In this document: piece by piece, positions 43,482 through 55,265 of the stretch
Layout: each line of letters begins with the position of its first letter
Numbering within the stretch: position 1 is the first letter of the stretch
Assembly (NCBI GenBank): GCA_031459385.1
Contig: JAVKIP010000004.1
Span: 96,001-160,000, forward strand
Length of the DNA stretch: 64,000 bases
Origin: Candidatus Fervidifonticultor secundus
Lineage (GTDB): Bacteria > Sysuimicrobiota > Sysuimicrobiia > Sysuimicrobiales > Humicultoraceae
Direction: 5' to 3'
The notes under the pieces: generated by a model
Database searches by the model: none
Seen by the model: the letters and a program-made list of their open reading frames with translations, nothing else
What the model was told of the DNA's origin: nothing
Made by a program: the position numbers and the translations under genes

Positions 43482-44510
43482 GTGGCGACGAACGGCGACT
43501 ATATCCTTGAGGTCCGAAACCTCGTCAAGCACTTCCCCGTCACCAAGGGGTTCATCTTCCAGCGGCAGGTGGGCGCCGTCAAGGCCGTGGACGGCGTCTC
43601 GTTCTCCATCCGCCGGGGCGAGACCCTGGGGCTGGTGGGCGAGTCGGGGTGCGGGAAGACCACCACCGGGCGGGTCATCCTGCGGCTCATGGAGCCCACG
43701 GCGGGCGAAGTCCGCTTCGAGGGCCAGAACATCCTGGCGCTGAACAAGGAAGAGCTGCGGCGCATGCGCCGGAACATGCAGATCATCTTCCAGGACCCGT
43801 ACTCGTCGCTCAACCCGCGCATGACGGTGGGCGACATCATCGGCGAGCCCCTCGAGATCCACAACTTGGCCCGGGGGAAGGAGAAGGTCCGGCGGGTGCA
43901 GGAGCTGCTGGAGGTGGTGGGGCTCTCCCCCTACCACGCGAACCGCTACCCGCACGAGTTCTCCGGCGGGCAGCGCCAGCGCATCGGGATCGCCCGCGCG
44001 CTGGCGGTGAACCCGAAGCTCATCATCTGTGACGAGCCCGTCTCGGCGCTGGACGTCTCCATCCAGGCGCAGGTGTTGAACCTGCTCCAGGAGCTGCAGA
44101 AAGAGTTTGGGCTGACGTACCTGTTCATCGCCCATGACCTCTCGGTCGTCAAGCACATCAGCGACCGGATCGCGGTGATGTACCTGGGCAAGATCGTCGA
44201 GATCGCGGCCGCCGACGAGCTGTTCGCCAACCCGCAGCACCCCTACACCGAGGCCCTGCTATCGGCGGTGCCGATCCCCGATCCCGCCATCCGGCGCGAG
44301 CGCATCATCCTGCCGGGCGACGTGCCCAGTCCCGTGAACCCCCCGCGGGGCTGCCGGTTCCACACCCGGTGCCTGTATGCCCGCGAGTCGTGCAAGGTCA
44401 ACGAGCAGGAACTGGTCGACATCGGCGGCGGCCACTACGTGGCGTGCGAGGTGCTGCCGTTCCGCCACCAGCGCAGCAAGGCCGCGGTCCTCAAGGCGCC
44501 GGCGTCGTAG
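43482..44510 (+). CDS. oppF: Oligopeptide ABC ATPase (OppF/DppF type)
   Basis: [50 protein letters not shown]. Confidence 0.93.
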
Positions 44511-44530
44511 GGTCTGTCCGCGGCGGGCCG

Positions 44531-44560
44531 GGTGCCGGGGCAGGGTGTGGCCCCGGCACC
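44531..44560 (+). terminator. Hairpin after oppF
   Basis: GGTGCCGGGGC-N8-GCCCCGGCACC 11-bp stem with a short T run downstream. Confidence 0.5.
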
Positions 44561-44590
44561 GCGCTTTCCGGCGGCCGCCCCCGGCAGGCG

Positions 44591-44599
44591 TGCTACCAT
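44591..44599 (+). promoter_or_regulatory. Extended -10 element of gatCAB
   Basis: TG-C-TACCAT about 35 nt before gatC. Confidence 0.45.
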
Positions 44600-44634
44600 G
44601 AGAGCGACGTGAGCCGCACGCCCCGAGGGGTCTC

Positions 44635-44937
44635 ATGATCGATCACCGCACGGTGGACCACGTGGCCCGCCTGGCACGGCTGGCCCTGTCACCAGAGGAG
44701 CGTGAGCGGTTCGCCGCGCAGCTCGGCCGCATCCTGGAGTACATCGCCCGCCTGGACGCCCTGGACCTGGCCGACGTGCCGCCCACGTCCCACGTCGTCC
44801 CGATGGTCAACGTCTTCCGGGCGGACGTGGTGACGCCGTCGCTGCCCCGCGACGAGGTGTTGGGGGCAGCGCCGGCCCAGGCCGATGGCTTCTTCGTCGT
44901 CCCGCGCGTGTTGGACGTCGGGGCCGCCGATGGATGA
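44635..44937 (+). CDS. gatC: Asp/Glu-tRNA amidotransferase subunit C
   Basis: VDHVARLARL, VPPTSH..NVFRAD, GFFVVPRV. Confidence 0.95.
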   Translation: MIDHRTVDHVARLARLALSPEERERFAAQLGRILEYIARLDALDLADVPPTSHVVPMVNVFRADVVTPSLPRDEVLGAAPAQADGFFVVPRVLDVGAADG

Positions 44938-46393
44938 CCTGGCCTTCGCCAGCGCCCGCACCCTCACCGCGGCCTACCGCGCCGGGACGGTGCGGCCCTT
45001 GCAGGTCGTAGAGGGAGCCCTGGACCGCATCGCGCGGCTCGACCCGACGCTGCACGCCTTCCTGTACGTCGATGCCGACGGCGCGCGGCGGGAGGCGGCA
45101 GCCTGGGACGCCCGCATCGCCGCCGGCGCCGCCGATCTCCCGCCGTTGGCCGGCGTCCCGGTGGCGGTCAAGGACAACATCTGTACGCGCGGCGTCCCCA
45201 CCACGTGCGCGTCGCGCATCCTGGAGGGGTGGCGGCCGCCCTACGACGCCACGGTGGTGACGCGGCTACGGGAGGCCGGCGCCATCATCCTGGGCAAGAC
45301 CAACCTGGACGAGTTCGCGATGGGCTCGTCCACGGAGTACTCGGCGTTCGGGCCCACCCGCAACCCGTGGGATCTCACGCGCGTGCCCGGCGGCTCCTCC
45401 GGCGGGTCCGCCGCCGCAGTGGCGGCCGGCCTCGTGCCCCTGGCCCTGGGCTCCGACACCGGGGGCTCGATCCGGCTGCCGGCCGGGTTCTGCGGCGTGG
45501 TGGGGCTGAAGCCCACGTACGGGCGCGTTTCCCGCTACGGCCTCGTGGCCTTCGCCTCGTCGCTCGACCAGATCGGCCCCATCGCCCGCGACGTGGCGGA
45601 CTGCGCGCTGCTGCTGGGCGTGCTGGCAGGCCGCGATCCGGCCGATGCCACGTCCGCCGACGTGCCCGTGCCGGACTACCGGGGCGCGCTGGCCCGGGGC
45701 GCCGCCGGCCTGCGCCTGGGCGTGCCGCGCGAAGCCTTCGGCGAGGGCGTGGCCCCGGCCGTGGCAGCGGCGCTGCGCGAGGCCCTGGGCGTCTTTGAAG
45801 GCCTGGGCCTGACCGTGGAGGAGATCGGCCTGCCCACCATCGACGCGGCGCTGCCCGCGTACTACATCCTGGCCCCGGCCGAGGCATCGTCGAACCTGGC
45901 CCGCTACGATGGGGTACAGTACGGCCTGCGGGTGCCCGGCGAGGACCTCTATGCGATGGTGGCGGGGACGCGCCGCCAGGGGTTCGGCGCCGAAGTGCAG
46001 CGCCGCATCATGCTCGGCACCTACGCGCTCTCCGCCGGCTACTACGAAGCGTTCTACCTGAAGGCGCAGCGGGCGCGGACGCTGGTGGCCCGCGACTTCG
46101 CCCGGGCGTTCACACGCGTCGATCTGGTGGTGCTCCCCGTGGCGCCGACGCCGGCGTTTCGCCTGGGCGAGAAGGCCGACGACCCGCTGCAGATGTACCT
46201 CTCGGATATCTTCACGATCTCCGTGAACCTGGCGGGCCTGCCGGGCCTGGCGCTGCCCTGTGGCACGGCCGACGGCCTGCCCGTCGGCCTGCAGCTCGTG
46301 GGCCGCGCCTTCGAGGAAGTGGACGTGCTGCGGGCCGGATACGCGTACGAGCAGGCCGCGGGCTGGCACGGCCGGCGGCCGCCGGTGGGGTGA
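44930..46393 (+). CDS. gatA: Asp/Glu-tRNA amidotransferase subunit A
   Basis: [50 protein letters not shown]. Confidence 0.97.
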
Positions 46394-46401
46394 GGCCACG
46401 C

Positions 46402-47862
46402 ATGGCCCGCGACGTCGCCGTGGCGTACGAGACGGTCATCGGCCTGGAGATTCACGTCCAGCTGGCGACGGCGTCGAAGATGTTCTGCGGGTGTGCGGTG
46501 AGCTTCGGGGCGCCGCCCAACACCCTGACCTGTCCGGTGTGCCTGGGCCTGCCGGGCGCGCTACCCGTCATCAACCGGGCGGCGGTCGAGCTGGGCCTGC
46601 GCACGGCCCTGGCCCTGGGCTGCCGGGTCAGTCCCCGCAGCCAGTTCCACCGGAAGAACTACTTCTACCCCGACCTGCCCAAGAACTACCAGATCTCGCA
46701 GTACCAGTACGCGGACCACCCGCCGCTGGCGACCGACGGCCGGCTGGAGATCGCCGTCGACGGCACCGCGCGCGTCGTGCGCATCCGGCGCGTGCACCTC
46801 GAGGAGGACACCGGGCGCCTGGTGCACCCCGACGATCCCGGTCGGGGCAGCCTGATCGACTACAACCGCTCCGGAGTGCCGCTCATGGAGATCGTCACCG
46901 AGCCCGATCTGCGCTCGCCGGCCGAGGCCCGAGAGTTCCTGCTGGCGCTGCGCCGCCTGCTGCAGTTCGCGCGAGTGAGCACCGGGCGCATGGAGGAGGG
47001 GACGATGCGCTGCGATGCCAACGTCTCGCTGCGCCCCTCCGACGGTGCCCGCGGCACCCGCACCGAGGTCAAGAACATGAACTCGGTGCGCGCCGTCGAG
47101 CGCGCGCTGGCGTTCGAGGTGACGCGGCAGCGAGCCGTACTGGCGCAGGGCGGGCAGGTGGTGCAGGAGACCCGCCACTGGGACGAGCGGCGAGAGGTCA
47201 CCTTTGGCTCGCGCACCAAAGAGGAGGCGCAGGACTACCGGTACTTCCCCGAGCCCGACCTGGTGCCGATCGCGGTGGACGCATCGTGGTTGGAGGCCGT
47301 GCGGGCGTCGCTGCCGGAGCTCCCGGCGGCCCGGCGCGCGCGGTTCATCGCCGCCTACGGGCTGTCGGCGTACGACGCCGACCTGCTGACGGCGACCGCA
47401 GCCACGGCCGACCTGTTCGAGCAGACCACGGCCCTCTACCCGGCGCCCAAGACCGTGGCCAACTGGCTGCTGGGCGATGTCGCCGGCTATCTCAACGAGC
47501 ACGGCCTTGAACTCGATCAGGTGCCGTTGTCTGCCGGGCGCCTGGCGGCCCTGCTGCGCATGGTCGAGCAGGGCACGATCAGCGGCCGCACGGCCAAGGA
47601 GATCCTGGTGGAGATGCTGACCCACGACCGCGATCCGGCGGCCATCGTCGAGGCCAGAGGCCTGCGCCAGATCAGCGACGAGGAGACGCTGCGGGCTGTG
47701 GTCGCCCGCGTCATCGCCGAGCACCCCGGGCCGGCAGCCGACGTGCGCGGTGGGAAGGACAAGGCGCTGACCTTCCTGGTGGGACAGGTGATGCGGGTCA
47801 CGCAGGGGCGGGCGAACCCCGAGACGGTCCACCGGCTCCTGCGGGAGCAACTGGGGCGGTAG
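46402..47862 (+). CDS. gatB: Asp/Glu-tRNA amidotransferase subunit B
   Basis: [43 protein letters not shown]. Confidence 0.98.
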
Positions 47863-47864
47863 GC

Positions 47865-49307
47865 GTGCCGGAAGCCACGCCACGGCGCCGGCGAACCGCG
47901 GTCCTGGTCCCGCGCCCGGAGCGCCCCACCCGGCATCCGCGACACCCGGCGGTGCCACGGGCTGGCGAGCGCCTCACCGTGCGCTTCACCGGCCTCACCA
48001 TCGACGGAGCCGCCATCGCCCGCGTGGGCCCGGCCACGGTTTCCGTGCCGTTCGGCGTGCCTGGCGAGGACGCCCTCGTCGAGGTGACGCGCGGCGGCCG
48101 CCGGGCAGAGGGCCGGCTGGTGGCGCTGCTGCGCAAGTCGGCCGACGTCACGCCGGCCCGCTGCCAGCACTTCGGACGCTGCGGAGGTTGCCAGTGGCAG
48201 CATCTGATCCCGGACGCCCAGCGCCGCCTCAAGACCCGGCTCGTCCGAGACTTCCTCAAGGAGCATGCCGGCCTGCGCCGCGACCTCGTGGCCGAGACGG
48301 TCGGCGGCGAGGCGTGGGCCTATCGCAGCGTGCTGCGTGCTACGGTCGCCACGCGGGAGGGCCGCGCCGTCGTCGGGTTCCACACTGCGGGTGGAACACG
48401 CGTCGTCGACGTGGCCGCCTGCCCGGTGCAGCACCCGGCCAACGAGGCGATCCTCCACGCCGTGCGTCGCGCGGTGCGCGGCCTGCGCTGGCCGCCGTAC
48501 GATCGCACGACGGGCCAGGGGCTCGTGCGCGGGGTGCTGGGGCTGGCGGCGTTCGCGACCGGCGAGGCGCTGCTGGTGGTCTCTACCGCTCGCGCGCTCC
48601 CCGATCCCACGGCGCTCGTGCACGCGCTCATCGACCGCGTCCCCGGGCTCGTGGGCATCCTGCACACGATCCAGCCTGCCCCGACCCTGGAGCTGCTGGG
48701 CAAGCGCGTACGGTTGCTCTGGGGCCGCGCCTACATCGAAGACGAGGTGGCTGGCTACCGGCTCCGCCTGCGGTCGGACGGCGATCTGCCGCCGAATCCG
48801 GGCGCGCTGCGGCTCCTGCTGGACGCCATCGTCCGCCTGGCGGCGCCCGGCCCGCGCGACGCCGTCCTCGACCTGCACGCCAGCACGCCCTTGCCGGCCC
48901 TGGCCCTGGCGGGTCAGGCGCAGGTGGCCACCGGCCTGGTGCCGGGCCGGCGGCTGCTGGAGGATTATCGCGCGGCTGCCGCGAGCAACGGCGTACCCAA
49001 TGCGGTCTTCGTCGCGGGCGACCCCGTGAGGTACCTGGCGCGCCTGACGGCCCGCGGCCGCACGCCGCAGGTCGTGCTCGCCGAGAGCCGCGGCGTGGGC
49101 CTCGAGCCGGCGCTGGTGGCCGCCGTGGCCGGCTGCGGGGTGCCGCGGGTGGTGAGCGTGACCCGCTCGCTGGCTGCCTGCGCGCACGATCTGGCCGCCT
49201 GGCAGCGCGCCGGCTACCGCGTGGAGCACCTCCAGCCCGTGGACCTCCTGCCGCACACGAGCCACGTGCACGTCGTCGCCAGCCTGCACCGGATCGCGCG
49301 CACCTGA
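47865..49307 (+). CDS. RlmD/TrmA-family homologue with degenerate catalytic domain
   Basis: TRAM N-terminus, CQHFGRCGGCQ and CPVQ Fe-S ligands, QPVDLLPHTSH C-terminus; SAM-binding and catalytic residues missing. Confidence 0.85.
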   Translation: MPEATPRRRRTAVLVPRPERPTRHPRHPAVPRAGERLTVRFTGLTIDGAAIARVGPATVSVPFGVPGEDALVEVTRGGRRAEGRLVALLRKSADVTPARCQHFGRCGGCQWQHLIPDAQRRLKTRLVRDFLKEHAGLRRDLVAETVGGEAWAYRSVLRATVATREGRAVVGFHTAGGTRVVDVAACPVQHPANEAILHAVRRAVRGLRWPPYDRTTGQGLVRGVLGLAAFATGEALLVVSTARALPDPTALVHALIDRVPGLVGILHTIQPAPTLELLGKRVRLLWGRAYIEDEVAGYRLRLRSDGDLPPNPGALRLLLDAIVRLAAPGPRDAVLDLHASTPLPALALAGQAQVATGLVPGRRLLEDYRAAAASNGVPNAVFVAGDPVRYLARLTARGRTPQVVLAESRGVGLEPALVAAVAGCGVPRVVSVTRSLAACAHDLAAWQRAGYRVEHLQPVDLLPHTSHVHVVASLHRIART

Positions 49308-49338
49308 GCGGGCGCGCGGCCCACGGATGGGCAGCCTG

Positions 49339-49347
49339 TGCTACAAT
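49339..49347 (+). promoter_or_regulatory. Extended -10 element of dnaE
   Basis: TG-C-TACAAT 13 nt before the ATG. Confidence 0.6.
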
Positions 49348-49360
49348 CTCCGGTGAGCCC

Positions 49361-52300
49361 ATGCCCGATGCCTTCGTCCACTGCCATCTGCACACCGAGT
49401 ACTCCCTGCTCGACGGTGCCGCGCGGATCGAGCCGCTCATCAAGGCGGCGGCGGCCATGGGCATGCCGGCGGTCGCCATCACCGATCACGGCGCGATGTA
49501 CGGCGCCATCGAGTTCTACCTCCAGGCGCGGGCGCACGGACTGAAACCCATCATCGGCGTGGAGGCCTACGTCGCTCCCCGCCGGCACACCGACCGCGAT
49601 CCGAAGCTGGACGCGGTCCCCGCACACCTGGTCCTGCTGGCCACCGACCTGCAGGGCTACCGCAACCTGCTGCGCCTGACGACGCACGCCCACCTCGACG
49701 GGTTCTACTACAAGCCGCGCATCGACCGCGAGCTGCTGGCGCGGCACCACCAGGGGCTGGTCGCCCTGTCGGGATGCCTGCAGGGCGAGGTGACGCGGGC
49801 GCTGCTGCGCGACGACTACCGGGCCGCCCGCGACGTTGCCGCTGCTTACCGCGAGATCTTCGGGCCCGAGCGCTTCTTCCTCGAGGTGCAGGATCACGGG
49901 TTGCCAGAGCAGCGGGTGAACATCCAGGGGATGCGGCGGCTGGCCGCCGAGCTGGGGCTCCCGCTGGTGGCCACCAACGACGTGCACTACGTCCGGCAGG
50001 ACGAGGCCGAAGCGCAGGACGCCCTGATGTGCATCCAGATGAACATCACCTTGGAGGCGACCGACAAGCCGCGGATGGGCGCGGTCCCCGAGTTCTACCT
50101 GAAGAGCCCCGAGGAGATGGCGCGCCGATTCGCCGAGCTGCCGGAAGCGCTGCGGGCGTCAGTGGAGATCGCCGAGCGGGTGCACCTGGAGCTGGAGCTG
50201 GGCCGGCCCAAGCTGCCCCACTTCCCCGTGCCGGAGGGCGAGACACCAGATGGGTACCTGCGGCGGTTGTGCGAGGAGGGCCTGCGGCGGGTCTACGGGC
50301 GGCCCACCCCGCAGGCGCAGGCGCGCCTGGACGACGAACTGCGCGTCATCGCCCAGATGGGATACGCCGCCTACTTCCTCATCGTCTGGGACTTCGTGAC
50401 GTTCGCCCGGCGCCGCGGCATCCTCACCACGGTCCGGGGGTCGGCGGCCGGCAGCCTGGTGCTCTACACCCTGGGCGTCACCGACGTCGATCCGCTCCAC
50501 TACCGGCTGCCGTTCGAGCGCTTCCTGAACCTGGAACGCTACACGATGCCGGACATCGACGTCGACTTCATGGACAGCCGCCGCGACGAGGTGATCCGCT
50601 ACGTGATCGACAAGTACGGCGCCGACCACGTGGCCCAGATCATCACCTTCGGCACCATGGGCGCGCGCCAGGCCGTGCGCGACATCGGCCGCGTCATGGG
50701 CCTGCCCTACGGCGACGTGGACCGGATCGCCAAGCTCATCCCGTTCAACGCCACGATCGACGAGGCCGAGCGGGCCGATCCCGAGCTGCGCCGCGCCGCC
50801 GACGAACACCCCCCCATCCGGCGGCTGCTGGAACTCGCGCGCCGGCTGGAAGGCGTGGCCCGGCACGCCAGCACCCACGCGGCCGGCGTCATCATCTCGC
50901 GCGACCCGCTCACGGAGCTGGTGCCCCTCCAGCGCGCGACCCGCGGCGATCTGGTGATGACCCAGTACGACATGGACGCCGTGGAGAGGATCGGGCTCCT
51001 CAAGATGGACTTCCTGGGGCTGTCGTACCTGACGATCCTCCACCGTGCGCTGAAGATCATCGAGCGTACCCGCGGAGTCGCCATAGACCTGAAGACCATC
51101 CCGCTGGACGATCGCGCGACGTTCGACCTCCTCTCCCGCGGCGACACGGTCGGGATCTTCCAGCTGGAAGGCGCGGGGATGACGCGGTACCTGAAGGAGC
51201 TCAAGCCGACCCGCATCGAGGACATCTTTGCCATGGTGGCCCTCTTCCGGCCGGGCCCCATGGCCAACATCCCGGCCTACATCCGCCGCAAGCACGGCGT
51301 CGAAGCCATCACGTACCTGCATCCGCTGATGGAGCCGGTGCTGGCCGATACCTACGGCGTGATGGTCTACCAGGAAGACGTCATGGCGGTCTGCCAGGCG
51401 GTCGCCGGCTTCACGCTGGCCGAGGCAGACGTCCTCTGCTACGCCATTCGCAAGAAGATCAAGGACCGTCTGGAAGCGCAGCGCGAGAAGTTCCTGGCCG
51501 GCTGCCGCCAGCAGGGGGTGTCCCGCAGGACTGCCGATCAGATCTGGGAGCAGTTCGAGCCGTTCGCGCGCTACGGGTTCAATCGGGCCCACGCCGCCTG
51601 CTACGGGCTGATCGCCTACCAGACCGCTTACCTGAAGGCGCACTACCCGGCCGAGTACATGGCCGCCGTCCTGGGCGTCGAGGCGCAGGGACAGGAGTGG
51701 ATGGCCAAGGTCGCCGGGGCTGTCGCCGAATGCCAGCGCATGGGCATTCCGGTGCTGCCGCCGGATATCAACGCATCCGCCGATACGTTCACCGTCGTGG
51801 GCGACACGGTCCGGTTCGGGCTCGCGGCGGTCAAGCACGTCGGCCAGGGCGCGGTGGAGGAGATCCTGCGGGCGCGGGCCGCGGGCGGACCGTTCCGCTC
51901 CCTGCCCGACCTCGTCGCGCGGGTGGATGGCCGGGTGGTCAACAAGCGCGTCCTGGAGAGCCTGATCAAGGCCGGCGCGTTCGACTCCCTGGGCCGGCCG
52001 CGGGCAGCGCTCTTGCAGGACCTGGACGGCGCCCTGAGCACCGGCCAGCGGCTGGCCAGGGGGCGGGCGGCTGCCCAGACCGGGTTGTTCGTGGACGCCG
52101 ACGGGGCCGGCGAGCCCGATGCCGTGTCGGCGGCTGTGGAGGAGTTCTCCAAGGCCGAACTGCTGGCCATGGAGAAGGACATGCTCGGGTTGTACATCTC
52201 TGACCACCCGCTGGCGGCCGTCCGGGAGCGGCTGGCGGCGCGCGTCTCGGCGACGATCGACCAGCTCGCGGAGCTGCGCGACCGCAGCGAGGTGGTCATC

Positions 52301-52819
52301 GGCGGGTTGATCACGGGACTGAAGCGGACCGCCACCCGGGCCGGCGCGGCCATGGCTTTCCTCACCCTGGAGGATCTCACCGGCAGCGTCGAGGTCATCG
52401 TGTTTCCCAAGACCTACGAGGCCGCCCACCTCCTGCTCAAGCGCGATGCCATCGTGCTCGTGCGTGGGCGGCTGGACGTGGCCGAGCAGGAGGCGAAGGT
52501 GCTGGCCGACGCGGTGCTGCCTCTCGATGACGCGCCGGGGGCCGCAGCCCCAGCGCCGGAGCCCGACGGCGGCGCCGAGGTGCTGCACGTCCTGCTCGAC
52601 GCGGACCGGCATGGGGAGGCGGGGATGCAGCGCCTGCGCGCGCTCCTCCAGCGGCACACCGGGGACCGCAAGGTGCTCCTGACCGTGCGCACGGCCGGCC
52701 GGGAGGTCCGCATGCAGGCAGGTGCCCTCGGCGTGGCCCCCGGGCCACGAGTCGTCCAGGCGATCGAGGCGCTGCTGGGACCCGACACTGCCCGGTGGGT
52801 GCCGGCCAGGCATGGCTGA
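49361..52819 (+). CDS. dnaE: DNA polymerase III alpha subunit
   Basis: PHP motifs HLHTEYSLLDG, ITDHG, ATNDVHY; RGSAAGSLV, PDIDVDF, KMDFLGL, YGFNRAH; C-terminal OB fold; no intein. Confidence 0.98.
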   Translation: MPDAFVHCHLHTEYSLLDGAARIEPLIKAAAAMGMPAVAITDHGAMYGAIEFYLQARAHGLKPIIGVEAYVAPRRHTDRDPKLDAVPAHLVLLATDLQGYRNLLRLTTHAHLDGFYYKPRIDRELLARHHQGLVALSGCLQGEVTRALLRDDYRAARDVAAAYREIFGPERFFLEVQDHGLPEQRVNIQGMRRLAAELGLPLVATNDVHYVRQDEAEAQDALMCIQMNITLEATDKPRMGAVPEFYLKSPEEMARRFAELPEALRASVEIAERVHLELELGRPKLPHFPVPEGETPDGYLRRLCEEGLRRVYGRPTPQAQARLDDELRVIAQMGYAAYFLIVWDFVTFARRRGILTTVRGSAAGSLVLYTLGVTDVDPLHYRLPFERFLNLERYTMPDIDVDFMDSRRDEVIRYVIDKYGADHVAQIITFGTMGARQAVRDIGRVMGLPYGDVDRIAKLIPFNATIDEAERADPELRRAADEHPPIRRLLELARRLEGVARHASTHAAGVIISRDPLTELVPLQRATRGDLVMTQYDMDAVERIGLLKMDFLGLSYLTILHRALKIIERTRGVAIDLKTIPLDDRATFDLLSRGDTVGIFQLEGAGMTRYLKELKPTRIEDIFAMVALFRPGPMANIPAYIRRKHGVEAITYLHPLMEPVLADTYGVMVYQEDVMAVCQAVAGFTLAEADVLCYAIRKKIKDRLEAQREKFLAGCRQQGVSRRTADQIWEQFEPFARYGFNRAHAACYGLIAYQTAYLKAHYPAEYMAAVLGVEAQGQEWMAKVAGAVAECQRMGIPVLPPDINASADTFTVVGDTVRFGLAAVKHVGQGAVEEILRARAAGGPFRSLPDLVARVDGRVVNKRVLESLIKAGAFDSLGRPRAALLQDLDGALSTGQRLARGRAAAQTGLFVDADGAGEPDAVSAAVEEFSKAELLAMEKDMLGLYISDHPLAAVRERLAARVSATIDQLAELRDRSEVVIGGLITGLKRTATRAGAAMAFLTLEDLTGSVEVIVFPKTYEAAHLLLKRDAIVLVRGRLDVAEQEAKVLADAVLPLDDAPGAAAPAPEPDGGAEVLHVLLDADRHGEAGMQRLRALLQRHTGDRKVLLTVRTAGREVRMQAGALGVAPGPRVVQAIEALLGPDTARWVPARHG

Positions 52820-53426
52820 GCCGCCTGCGACCATGGTCCCGACGCCCCTGGCGCCCTCGGCGCCATCGGGTAGGAAACGCTGGATCGCCGGCGCGCTGGT
52901 GGTCGGGGTCGCCGCGGTCGCCGCCTATCTCGCCGGCACGCGCAGCGTGCCCGTTCCGCGCGATGGCGCCCGGCTCCAGGAGGCGCCTGCCCGCCAGGCG
53001 GCGCCGGCATTCACCCTGCCCTCGCTCCGCGGGGGTCGCGAGATCGCGCTGCGCGACTTCCGCGGGCAGGTCGTGGTGCTGAACTTCTTCGCGTCGTGGT
53101 GCAAGCCGTGCGAGCTGGAGGCGGCCGACCTGCAGCGCACCTGGGAGGCGGTGCAGGGCCAGGGCGTCGTCCTGCTGGGGATCGCCATGCAGGACCGCTA
53201 TGACGATGCCCGGCAGTTCCTCGAGAAGCACGGCCTGACCTACCCGGCAGTCTTCGACCGCGACAACCGCGTCGCGGAGGCCTACCGGATCACGGGGATC
53301 CCGACCACGGTCTTCATCGACCCCACGGGCCGCATCGCCGGCCGCCACGTGGGCGTGTTCGTGGGCGACGAGGGTCGGGCCCGCCTGCGGGCGCGGATCG
53401 AGGCGGCCCGGCGGGGGGCGCCGTGA
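52812..53426 (+). CDS. TlpA/ResA-family membrane-anchored thiol-disulfide oxidoreductase
   Basis: APAFTL, VVVLNFFASWCKPC..E, GIPTTVFID. Confidence 0.92.
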   Translation: MAEPPATMVPTPLAPSAPSGRKRWIAGALVVGVAAVAAYLAGTRSVPVPRDGARLQEAPARQAAPAFTLPSLRGGREIALRDFRGQVVVLNFFASWCKPCELEAADLQRTWEAVQGQGVVLLGIAMQDRYDDARQFLEKHGLTYPAVFDRDNRVAEAYRITGIPTTVFIDPTGRIAGRHVGVFVGDEGRARLRARIEAARRGAP

Positions 53427-54148
53427 GGGGGACGGCGCGCGCCCGGGTCACCGGCCTCCAGCTCGTGGCCGCCGTCGTGCTGCTGGGGCTGGGGTTCCTG
53501 TTCGTGGTGCAGTTTCGCGCCGGGCGCCTGCTGAGTGCGCAGCCGGAAGTGCCCACGCGCAATATCTACGCCCTGGCCACGTTGCTCCAGCAGGAGCGCG
53601 CCGCCCGCGCCGCCATGGAGCGGCGGGCCGCAGAGCTCTCACAGCAGCTGGCGCAGTACGAGCGCGCCGCGGCCGCCGACAAGACGCTGGCCGCAGCCAT
53701 GAGCAGAGAGCTGGACCAGCTGCGGCTGCAGGCCGGCCTGCGGGCGATGCAGGGGCCGGGCGTGACCATCGTGGTGCAGGACGCGCCGCACAAGACGGCC
53801 GGGGCACCGGTGGTGGTCACCTATCACGACCTGGTGGCGGTCGTCAACGAGCTCTGGGCTGCGGGCGCGGAGGCCGTGGCCGTCAACGGCCAGCGGGTTA
53901 CCGCGATGACGGGGTTCGGCCAGGTCGGCGGCACCATCGTCGTCGACCTCCAGCGCCTCGTGGGACCCTTCACCATCGTGGCCCTCGGCGATCCGGCCAC
54001 GCTGGAGGGAGCGCTCACCATCCGCGGTGGGGTGGTGGAGGGGCTCCGCGCCCTGGGACTCTCCCTCACCATCACGCGCCACGGCACCGTGACCGTTCCC
54101 GCCCACCGTGGCGGCGTGAAGTTCGAGCATGCGCGGCCCGTCCCCTGA
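53423..54148 (+). CDS. DUF881 domain protein
   Basis: TM plus coiled coil, GPGVTI, DL..VVNELWAAGAEAVAVNGQRV. Confidence 0.9.
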   Translation: MRGTARARVTGLQLVAAVVLLGLGFLFVVQFRAGRLLSAQPEVPTRNIYALATLLQQERAARAAMERRAAELSQQLAQYERAAAADKTLAAAMSRELDQLRLQAGLRAMQGPGVTIVVQDAPHKTAGAPVVVTYHDLVAVVNELWAAGAEAVAVNGQRVTAMTGFGQVGGTIVVDLQRLVGPFTIVALGDPATLEGALTIRGGVVEGLRALGLSLTITRHGTVTVPAHRGGVKFEHARPVP

Positions 54149-55265
54149 CGGGGTCTACGACGTCGTCATCGCCGGCGCGTCGTTCGCGGGCCTGGCCGCC
54201 GCGCGGGCGCTCGCCTCCGGCACGAGCCCGGCGCAGGCGCGGGGCGCGGCTCGCGGGCACCGGGTGCTGCTGGTGGACGCGCGGCCGATCGGCGAGGGCG
54301 TGACCTCGGCCTGCGCCGCGCCGGTGCGGATCGTGCGGATGATGGGCGCCGAGGCGTCGATCGCGCAGGTGCACGACGCCCTCGTCATTCACACGCCCGG
54401 CGGCCGGACGCGCTGGCTCCTGCCCGAGCCCTTCTGCACCTTCGACTACCGGACGTTCTGCCGCTGTGCGGCCGCGGGGTGCACCGCTGAGGTGCGCGTC
54501 GCCATCGTGCGCGGCCACGAGGGCAGGCGGGTCCTGACGTCTGCCGGCGCAGTAGAGACCCGGTTCATGATCGACGCCACAGGGCCGCGCGCGGCCCTGG
54601 CGGGGCCGGGGCGGCCCCGGTACGTCGCCTTCGGGCTCGAGTCGGAGATCCCCCACGCCGTCGAACCCGGACTGCACTTCTACTTCGTGCCGGAACTCCC
54701 GGACGGCTACGCCTGGGCGTTTCCGGCCGGCCCGGTAACGCGCTTCGGCGTGCTCTCGTATCGCGGCCGCACCAAGCTGCTCCCGGCCCTGCGCCGGTTC
54801 ATGGACCGGTTCGGCGCGCAGCCGGGTGAGCTGCACGGCGGATATCTTGCCACGGGATGGACCGGCGGACTCGCCGGGGCCGTGTTCGCGATCGGGGACG
54901 CCGCCGGCCACTGCCTGCCGCTGTCCGGCGAAGGCATCCGCACCGCGGTGCTGGCCGGCTGGCGCTGCGGGGCGTTGCTCCGGCGGGTGCTCGACGGTGA
55001 CCGAACCGAAGCGCAGGCCCGGGATGCCTACCGGGCGTTCGTCGCGGCCGCACGCCGGCGCTATCGGGGGTTGCTGGTGGGGAACCTCCTGCTGCTGTGG
55101 GTGCCGCGGCGGACGCTGGCCCCTGCGGCGCGGTGGCTGGGGCGGCCGGGGGCGCGGCGGTGGTTCTTCAAGCACTACATGGGCATCTTCGATGAGGTGC
55201 CCTTCGCGGGCGAGGAGGAGGCGGTCGGCCGACCACAATCTGCCGCGTCGGTCCCGTGCCGATGA
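54129..55265 (+). CDS. FAD-dependent oxidoreductase (geranylgeranyl reductase-like)
   Basis: DVVIAGASFAGL, DATG, GYAWAFP, IGDAAGHCLPLSGEGI. Confidence 0.85.
   Translation: MRGPSPDGVYDVVIAGASFAGLAAARALASGTSPAQARGAARGHRVLLVDARPIGEGVTSACAAPVRIVRMMGAEASIAQVHDALVIHTPGGRTRWLLPEPFCTFDYRTFCRCAAAGCTAEVRVAIVRGHEGRRVLTSAGAVETRFMIDATGPRAALAGPGRPRYVAFGLESEIPHAVEPGLHFYFVPELPDGYAWAFPAGPVTRFGVLSYRGRTKLLPALRRFMDRFGAQPGELHGGYLATGWTGGLAGAVFAIGDAAGHCLPLSGEGIRTAVLAGWRCGALLRRVLDGDRTEAQARDAYRAFVAAARRRYRGLLVGNLLLLWVPRRTLAPAARWLGRPGARRWFFKHYMGIFDEVPFAGEEEAVGRPQSAASVPCR

Follow-up and report, generated by a model that had tools for sequence, protein, structure and literature searches.

A conserved, apparently non-catalytic relative of the RlmD/RlmCD methyltransferases encoded behind gatB in Candidatus Sysuimicrobiota

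Work on m5U methyltransferases has assigned roles to the individual sites of RlmD and RlmCD, and the mechanism is described as dependent on a Cys and a Glu, according to the accessible portions of PMC6235398 and bioRxiv 10.1101/797472. In RlmCD of Streptococcus pneumoniae, residues R127, Q162 and F145 touch the RNA beside the target, and the mutants Q283A and D381A lose activity and keep RNA binding (PMC6235398, accessible portion). Studies on related enzymes, as far as their accessible text goes, indicate that TrmA folds tRNA independently of catalysis (PMC7641329), that a catalytically inactive bovine TRMT2B is retained (bioRxiv 10.1101/797472), and that an inactive Trm2 is retained as well, a precedent for a role free of catalysis (bioRxiv 10.1101/797472; PMC7641329). 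The role of m5U1939 is called unknown in the accessible text of PMC13602947. Two points about RlmD have long been open: the reason for its Fe-S cluster, for which no role in methyl transfer is known, and whether it is the chemistry or the folding of RNA that keeps RNA-modifying enzymes in place.

The window, that is, the whole stretch of 64,000 nucleotides analysed here, encodes a protein of this family, hereafter class B; the intact RlmD paralog of the same phylum is called class A. The gene and its neighbours are arranged as follows.

44635 to 46393, plus strand: gatC (44635-44937) and gatA, which we take to be the head of the operon, named from their sequence and their place before gatB
46390 to 47862, plus strand: gatB, the upstream neighbour
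47865 to 49307, plus strand: class B, a predicted pseudo-methyltransferase gene of RlmD/RlmCD fold, 480 aa in an uninterrupted reading frame
49361 to 52819, plus strand: dnaE (DNA polymerase III alpha), the downstream neighbour

Class B starts with GTG, 2 nt past the TAG of gatB (47862), and ends 53 nt before dnaE. The gatC and gatA ORFs are conserved upstream of class B in the compared loci. The open frame of 480 aa, its distance from gatB and its ordinary codon use are as given in the preliminary description. GC3 is 0.91 and CAI 0.71, compared with 0.73-0.78 for gatA, gatB, dnaE and polA, which also form the CAI reference set, and 0.75 for the intact rlmD. An antisense ORF of 590 aa over class B was rejected as a GC shadow (CAI 0.57). 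A scan of 44300-49600 for sigma-70 promoters and terminators gave no match, and the metatranscriptome reads of one dataset that fell on the region were mostly 80-90% matches, coming from other organisms. The genes after dnaE (52722-55265), encoding a ResA/TlpA-like thioredoxin, a DUF881 protein and a geranylgeranyl-reductase-like flavoprotein, look ordinary.

Residues of class B were mapped by alignment to S. pneumoniae RlmCD and E. coli RlmD, and the altered sites, with their state among the orthologues, are these.

48783 to 48797, plus strand: degenerate FxQxN motif, D307-L-P309-P-N; F in 0/70, Q in 0/70, P in 63/70 orthologues
48870 to 48941, plus strand: degenerate SAM motif I (DLHASTP) and V359; E or D at 359 in 0/69, G at 340 in 29/69, G at 342 in 48/69
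49083 to 49094, plus strand: degenerate DPPR motif, E407-S-R-G410; D in 2/72, R in 3/71, G in 62/71
49164 to 49166, plus strand: R434 in place of the nucleophilic Cys; C in 0/70, R in 47, H in 10
49263 to 49271, plus strand: H467-V-H469, with H469 in place of the general-base Glu; E in 4/71, H in 47

In terms of the E. coli enzyme, F263 has become D307, Q265 P309, E315 V359, D363 E407, R366 G410, the nucleophile C389 R434 and the general base E424 H469, and SAM motif I reads LDLHASTP (A339/S340/P342). E315 of RlmD is presumably the acid that binds the SAM ribose. Expressed in RlmCD numbering, the canonical residues are found in class B at 0/70 (F281), 0/70 (Q283), 2/72 (D381), 3/71 (R384), 0/70 (C408) and 4/71 (E443). 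The four Glu at the general-base position all belong to one genus, g23, in which the alignment register is uncertain, and Glu at position 407, a conservative replacement of Asp, occurs in 3 orthologues, with Asp itself kept in 2/72. Any single copy keeps at most one of the seven canonical sites, which are present in 29/29 class A proteins each and in 75-76 of 75-76 Bacillota outgroup proteins. Since the same losses recur across orthologues and the sites are intact in paralogs and outgroups, chance is not the cause. Class B thus fails four defining features of an active RlmD, namely the nucleophile, the general base, the uracil pocket and the SAM motif, and the alignments show a protein that is predicted to have no residues to bind SAM, hold the target uracil or catalyse. 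The losses of FxQVN, the SAM loop, GVE, the nucleophile and the general base had all been recognised in the preliminary description; its loss of DP(A/P)R also stands, with a corrected register, the DPPR equivalent being E-S-R-G (407-410) rather than AESR, so that the D to E change in this copy is a conservative one.

Class B scores 224.7 bits against the RlmD profile TIGR00479, above the cut-off of 183.55, and it is because this cut-off is passed that the proteins bear the name of an active RlmD; both NCBI and JGI name them so. It is nevertheless extremely unlikely that class B is still an m5U methyltransferase that works by an unusual mechanism, as the databases would have it: the nucleophilic Cys is missing in 70/70 copies, Q, F and the ribose-binding acid are absent, and the known mechanism needs the Cys and Glu introduced above. 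The catalytic-domain profile PF05958 gives no match in class B at E<=0.1.

The fold itself seems to be preserved. Among proteins of solved structure, S. pneumoniae RlmCD is the best match (E 1e-37), and an AlphaFold2 model (pLDDT 90.3, pTM 0.87) has RlmCD 5xj1 as its top Foldseek match (TM 0.87/0.92, rmsd 2.4). An ESM Atlas search with class B returned RlmD-type clusters only. In the model, class B is shown to keep the three-domain TRAM/central/Rossmann arrangement, and its N-terminal part is predicted as follows.

47865 to 47945, plus strand: basic Pro/Arg-rich N-terminal extension, aa 1-27, predicted to be disordered (pLDDT<50)
47964 to 48140, plus strand: TRAM/OB-fold domain, about aa 34-92, with a sub-cut-off match to PF01938 and five beta strands in the model

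The TRAM match amounts to 16.7 bits (E=0.0066), under the cut-off of 21. The arm predicted to be disordered carries a PTRHPRR-like motif (47919-47945) that several genera of family f1 conserve, and gene callers often begin class B at codon 30, dropping the arm (P0273, 451 aa).

Residues outside the catalytic site, in positions that RlmD and RlmCD use for the cluster and for RNA, have been retained.

48162 to 48191, plus strand: CxxxxxCGGC with C100/C106/C109, predicted [4Fe-4S] ligands equivalent to E. coli RlmD C81/C87/C90; C in 67/67 covered
48324 to 48380, plus strand: RNA-groove residues R154 (RlmCD R127) and F172 (RlmCD F145); R in 68/68, F/Y in 62/68
48420 to 48431, plus strand: C186, the fourth Fe-S Cys (E. 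coli RlmD C162), and Q189 (RlmCD Q162); C in 70/70, Q in 69/70

The equivalent of RlmCD H441 is H/R in 69/71 copies. The RNA contacts N249, H151 and the K of YRNK (0/68) of RlmCD are not retained, and the linker has the RlmCD length. The wedge residues F106/H125 of TrmA align with G226/A242 of class B, a position where the register is unreliable, TrmA being 14% identical. Protein identity within class B versus class A is 0.55 vs 0.57 in TRAM, 0.52 vs 0.56 in the central domain and 0.43 vs 0.64 in the catalytic domain.

The four invariant Cys, C100/C106/C109/C186, whose retention had been pointed out before, could suggest a Fe-S-dependent RNA-binding regulator in which loss of the cluster under oxygen or iron limitation would switch mRNA or rRNA binding and act as a translation checkpoint. 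In line with this idea, one proposal makes the cluster of RlmD an input for oxidative stress, without direct proof (PMC13602947, accessible text), the cluster ligands of METTL17 are better conserved than its SAM motif (PMC11046306, accessible text), and the phylum is described, in the accessible part of its literature, as facultatively anaerobic. The same Cys are, however, just as invariant in active relatives (29/29 and 76/76), as befits a structural cluster, and such a switch appears decidedly unlikely.

Codon-level evidence indicates that class B is maintained. Values of dN/dS by NG86 were 0.115-0.297 (23 pairs) for class B and 0.112-0.228 (6 pairs) for class A, and YN00 gave 0.043-0.149 for class B (11 of the 23 pairs). 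A tree-based codon model on 22 genomes with both genes, in which kappa was fixed at 1 and a GC3 near 0.9 may compress dS, yielded an omega of 0.092 for class B and 0.093 for class A. By domain, the figures for class B and class A were 0.081 and 0.091 in TRAM, 0.074 and 0.099 in the central domain, and 0.110 and 0.085 in the catalytic domain; with omega lower in the central and higher in the catalytic domain, constraint has moved to the Fe-S/RNA-binding domain. These values show, on codon comparisons, purifying selection on class B across most of the phylum. That the orthologues would share the motif loss and evolve under constraint had been predicted, and both were found (Cys in 0/70, omega 0.092). 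Taken together, the shared motif loss, a dN/dS far below 1 and the intact modelled fold bear out the earlier proposal that the protein is no active m5U methyltransferase and is still maintained.

On the same codon evidence, a recent pseudogene is excluded. The related idea of a decaying gene that serves as a mere spacer in an essential operon could draw on two broken copies, a frameshift near codon 370 in G059 (L190) and one in-frame TAG in G082 (L191), and on the absence of class B from family f5. Its probability is next to nil, given an omega equal to that of the intact enzyme, a frame open in nearly all copies, and a dN/dS of 0.28-0.30 even in copies of g23 that have moved elsewhere. The two breaks themselves may reflect loss in progress or assembly error.

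Selection on the catalytic domain (omega 0.11) raises the question of whether the pocket has been rebuilt as a SAM-independent site for modifying or processing RNA. Several replacements are clade-specific and conserved, namely P309 (63/70), R385 (67/69), G410 (62/71), L436 (86%), R/H434 (57/70) and H469 (47/71). New chemistry nonetheless seems improbable: no new residue is invariant, position 434 being S/G/T/A in several f2 and g23 copies and position 385 being G in the window genome, conservation is lowest in the catalytic domain (0.43), and the four Cys, if all ligate, leave no open iron site.

The host phylum of class B is, we infer, Candidatus Sysuimicrobiota. Among named records, those with a class B gene of 40-61% identity carry the titles Armatimonadota bacterium, uncultured bacterium, Bacillati bacterium ANGP1 and Ca. 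Fervidifonticultor octavus, and the last of these is placed in Ca. Sysuimicrobiota, Humicultoraceae. The phylum search covered 94 genomes, all of one order, in agreement with the one-order phylum described in the accessible text of PMC11604079. Class B is present in 75/94 of them; the tally set comprises 74 genomes in 75 rows (G035 twice, several rows cut by contig ends), plus G067, and the 94th genome, G078, stands outside the class B count. It was not found in the 12 genomes of family f5 (0/12; four rechecked at E 0.001), nor was there a match in G008, G014, G026, G050, G052 and G060, which are 77-89% complete. With completeness of 90% or more required, 51/51 genomes outside f5 have class B (3 as contig-end fragments) and 0/9 within it. 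Five f5 genomes (L197-L201) have another gene directly 3' of gatB, which we take from its motifs to be an aminotransferase-like ORF. In G033 only a short remnant lies before dnaE.

A profile search of 1.84 billion protein representatives gave seven class B matches above 500 bits, the next score being 405, and no class B was seen outside the phylum in this set, in which most proteins carry no taxon. The nucleophilic Cys is kept in 141 of the next 143 matches below; the exceptions are P0021, which is class B, and P0107. In unnamed protein collections the Cys is absent in 75/77 matches, the 2 intact ones being outsiders of 28-32% identity, and a metagenome scan found no close class B locus. P0107 is an unrelated RlmD-like protein in which the same sites are lost (F, Q, E, D, R, C) and four Cys are kept. 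It was rejected as a second pseudo-RlmD family, as the Cys is kept in 23/24 of its close relatives, the remaining one being a fragment; these relatives are intact, one is named Calditrichaeota, and P0107 is a singleton of convergent loss.

A separate intact rlmD had been suggested as a check, and the window genome does have one, class A, on another contig (G000:C3:15988-17268; 361.8 bits), among unrelated metabolic genes; it is the sole PF05958 match over the cut-off in that genome. Class A and class B coexist in most genomes of the phylum, and inactive partner subunits occur in other RNA methyltransferases. A role of class B as a non-catalytic subunit or regulator of class A would be consistent with both facts. 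It is, however, very improbable when the rest of the phylum is considered, for f5 has the active enzyme alone, and the opposite situation is found in genera g3, g9 and g12, which form one clade on the GatB tree (SH-aLRT 99; 5 of 8 genomes placed). In this clade class A was not found in 8/8 genomes, and class B is kept in 7 (dN/dS 0.18-0.25). The genomes (G004, G014, G020 and G044 of g3; G010, G018 and G024 of g9; G013 of g12) are MAGs, 68-97% complete with four at 91-97%, so single absences are weak, but the pattern is consistent. Weak RlmD-profile matches in g3 and g9 were considered as a hidden rlmD and rejected as RlmI-like (3 checked). Being kept in a clade in which no intact rlmD was found, class B is more than a partner of the active enzyme.

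TrmFO was searched for in 60 genomes of the phylum and found in none (0/60). With no intact rlmD found, and no TrmFO in the four genomes searched for it, the rRNA and tRNA of g3, g9 and g12 may be without any m5U. In the window genome, which has its single PF05958 protein, 45/56 predicted tRNAs show a T-loop pattern with U54; class A may be the enzyme that makes m5U54 in tRNA, as happens in Pyrococcus, unless U54 stays unmethylated.

The position of class B directly behind gatB has led to the proposal of a GatCAB partner. A tRNA-binding factor of this kind would use TRAM and the groove to hold tRNA(Gln/Asn) for the amidotransferase, or would chaperone tRNA in a phylum in which TrmFO was not found. 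Class B starts overlapping the gatB stop or within 10 nt of it in 55/59 loci with the gatB end captured, and a switch to tRNA by RlmD-like proteins is known from Pyrococcus (PDB titles 2jjq/2vs1). Against this, intact rlmD lies 0.7-3.5 kb 3' of gatB in 19 of the best 76 Bacillota outgroup loci (and 3' of dnaE in 3 of them), which means that such a gene order can be inherited. Moreover, six relocated copies, in five g23 loci and in G077, are away from gatB. The occurrence of class B tracks neither GlnRS (f1 19/22, f2 8/12, f4 0/15, f5 0/9) nor AsnRS (51/60 genomes overall, f1 21/22), nor dependence on transamidation: f5 has gatB and no GlnRS and is without class B, and f1 has GlnRS, AsnRS and class B together. 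Thus a GatCAB-tied role is weakened and remains unlikely, and we infer that the place behind gatB reflects inherited gene order and translational coupling rather than proof of a complex. The window genome has AsnRS and GlnRS (G000:C12:189240-190499 and G000:C12:13359-14951) alongside GatCAB (44635-47862). In g23 (L068, L183-L186, L222) class B is more diverged, and it is off gatB in the five loci checked, as it is also in L182 (G077); several of the relocated loci have an HTH/TPR-like regulator ORF close by, as judged by eye.

With regard to its origin, class B is monophyletic (support 100/99). A tree of only these two domains, TRAM and central, unites class A with four outside proteins (100/100) and sets class B apart. 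W286, a Bacillota-type feature, is found in 70/70 class B versus 2/29 class A proteins. This suggests that class B is the old gatB-linked rlmCD and class A a different lineage. AU tests did not reject A and B as sisters (p=0.67 quick; p=0.18 careful), and for this reason neither duplication within the phylum nor replacement by transfer is claimed.

Our results indicate that class B is real, conserved across most of the phylum and misannotated, and the alignments and the model show it as a conserved putative pseudo-enzyme of the RlmD/RlmCD (COG2265) family. Of the roles offered in the preliminary description, that of an RNA-binding factor is the best fit to the sequence evidence. Ancestry, the highest constraint in the central domain, and the precedents of TrmA, TRMT2B and the RlmCD mutants lead us to favour, with about even confidence, a [4Fe-4S] protein that binds RNA without catalysis and serves the folding of 23S rRNA or the assembly of ribosomes. 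Such a protein would bind a [4Fe-4S] cluster that stabilises its central domain and would grip structured RNA between the TRAM and central domains. Its RNA, judged from ancestry, would most likely be the 23S rRNA region bound by RlmD/RlmCD (U1939 or U747 loops) during 50S assembly. What was once the active site has turned basic (R434/H, H/R467, H469 and, in most orthologues, R385) and may contact the backbone with no flipping or methylation of uridine; the catalytic domain of class B carries a mean net charge of +5.4, that of class A in the same phylum +0.4. Class B would then be a chaperone of RNA folding or a factor in assembly, in which a modification-independent side job of m5U methyltransferases has become the sole job. 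In TrmA, bound SAM tightens the hold on tRNA (PMC7641329, accessible portion), and class B, having lost its SAM site, may bind RNA less firmly as a result. Because f5 lives without it, class B is not a universal assembly factor.

Class B may represent a natural separation of function, in which the chemistry appears to be gone, the cluster ligands and the groove are kept, and selection is as strong as on class A; one clade appears to have lost the enzyme and retained the pseudo-enzyme. This also corrects the database annotation of these proteins as active RlmD. A full-text literature search, with most subscription papers and supplements outside its scope, returned no described bacterial pseudo-RlmD. 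The word methyltransferase is absent from the main text of PMC11604079, the main paper on Sysuimicrobiota; its supplementary gene tables could list class B.

In METTL17/Rsm22, a methyltransferase fold and a four-Cys [4Fe-4S] cluster are coupled to rRNA in assembly, according to the accessible text of PMC11046306, a likeness of design with class B. By analogy, class B might be their bacterial counterpart, a SAM-blind [4Fe-4S] binder that would couple ribosome assembly to the iron-sulfur or redox state, which we regard as fairly unlikely; were it true, RNA binding and not m5U would be the more valuable function of RlmD in the g3, g9 and g12 clade. METTL17/Rsm22 are eukaryotic and act in assembly of the small mitoribosomal subunit, whereas class B is bacterial.

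Among bacterial relatives, RlmCD/YefA (S. pneumoniae SP_1029, B. subtilis YefA) and E. coli RlmD/RumA share with class B the fold, the four Cys and contacts of the R127/F145/Q162/H441 type. Unlike them, class B is without all seven catalytic, uracil-pocket and SAM-ribose sites and without a PF05958 match, and it has a basic N-terminal extension; all the Bacillota relatives aligned keep the catalytic residues. YfjO of B. subtilis, compared here by its description, is a second COG2265 paralog with no known target that is treated as an enzyme in the accessible text of PMC3241648. The TrmA/Trm2 chaperones and bovine TRMT2B, of the same family, resemble class B in having a role independent of methyl transfer or in being retained after loss of the Cys. 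As far as the accessible sources describe them, TrmA and Trm2 are active enzymes with a side job, and in TRMT2B the Cys is replaced in certain animal lineages, the SAM site being retained. In class B, by contrast, the SAM site, the uracil pocket, the nucleophile and the base have been lost jointly, in most of a bacterial phylum and beside an intact paralog.
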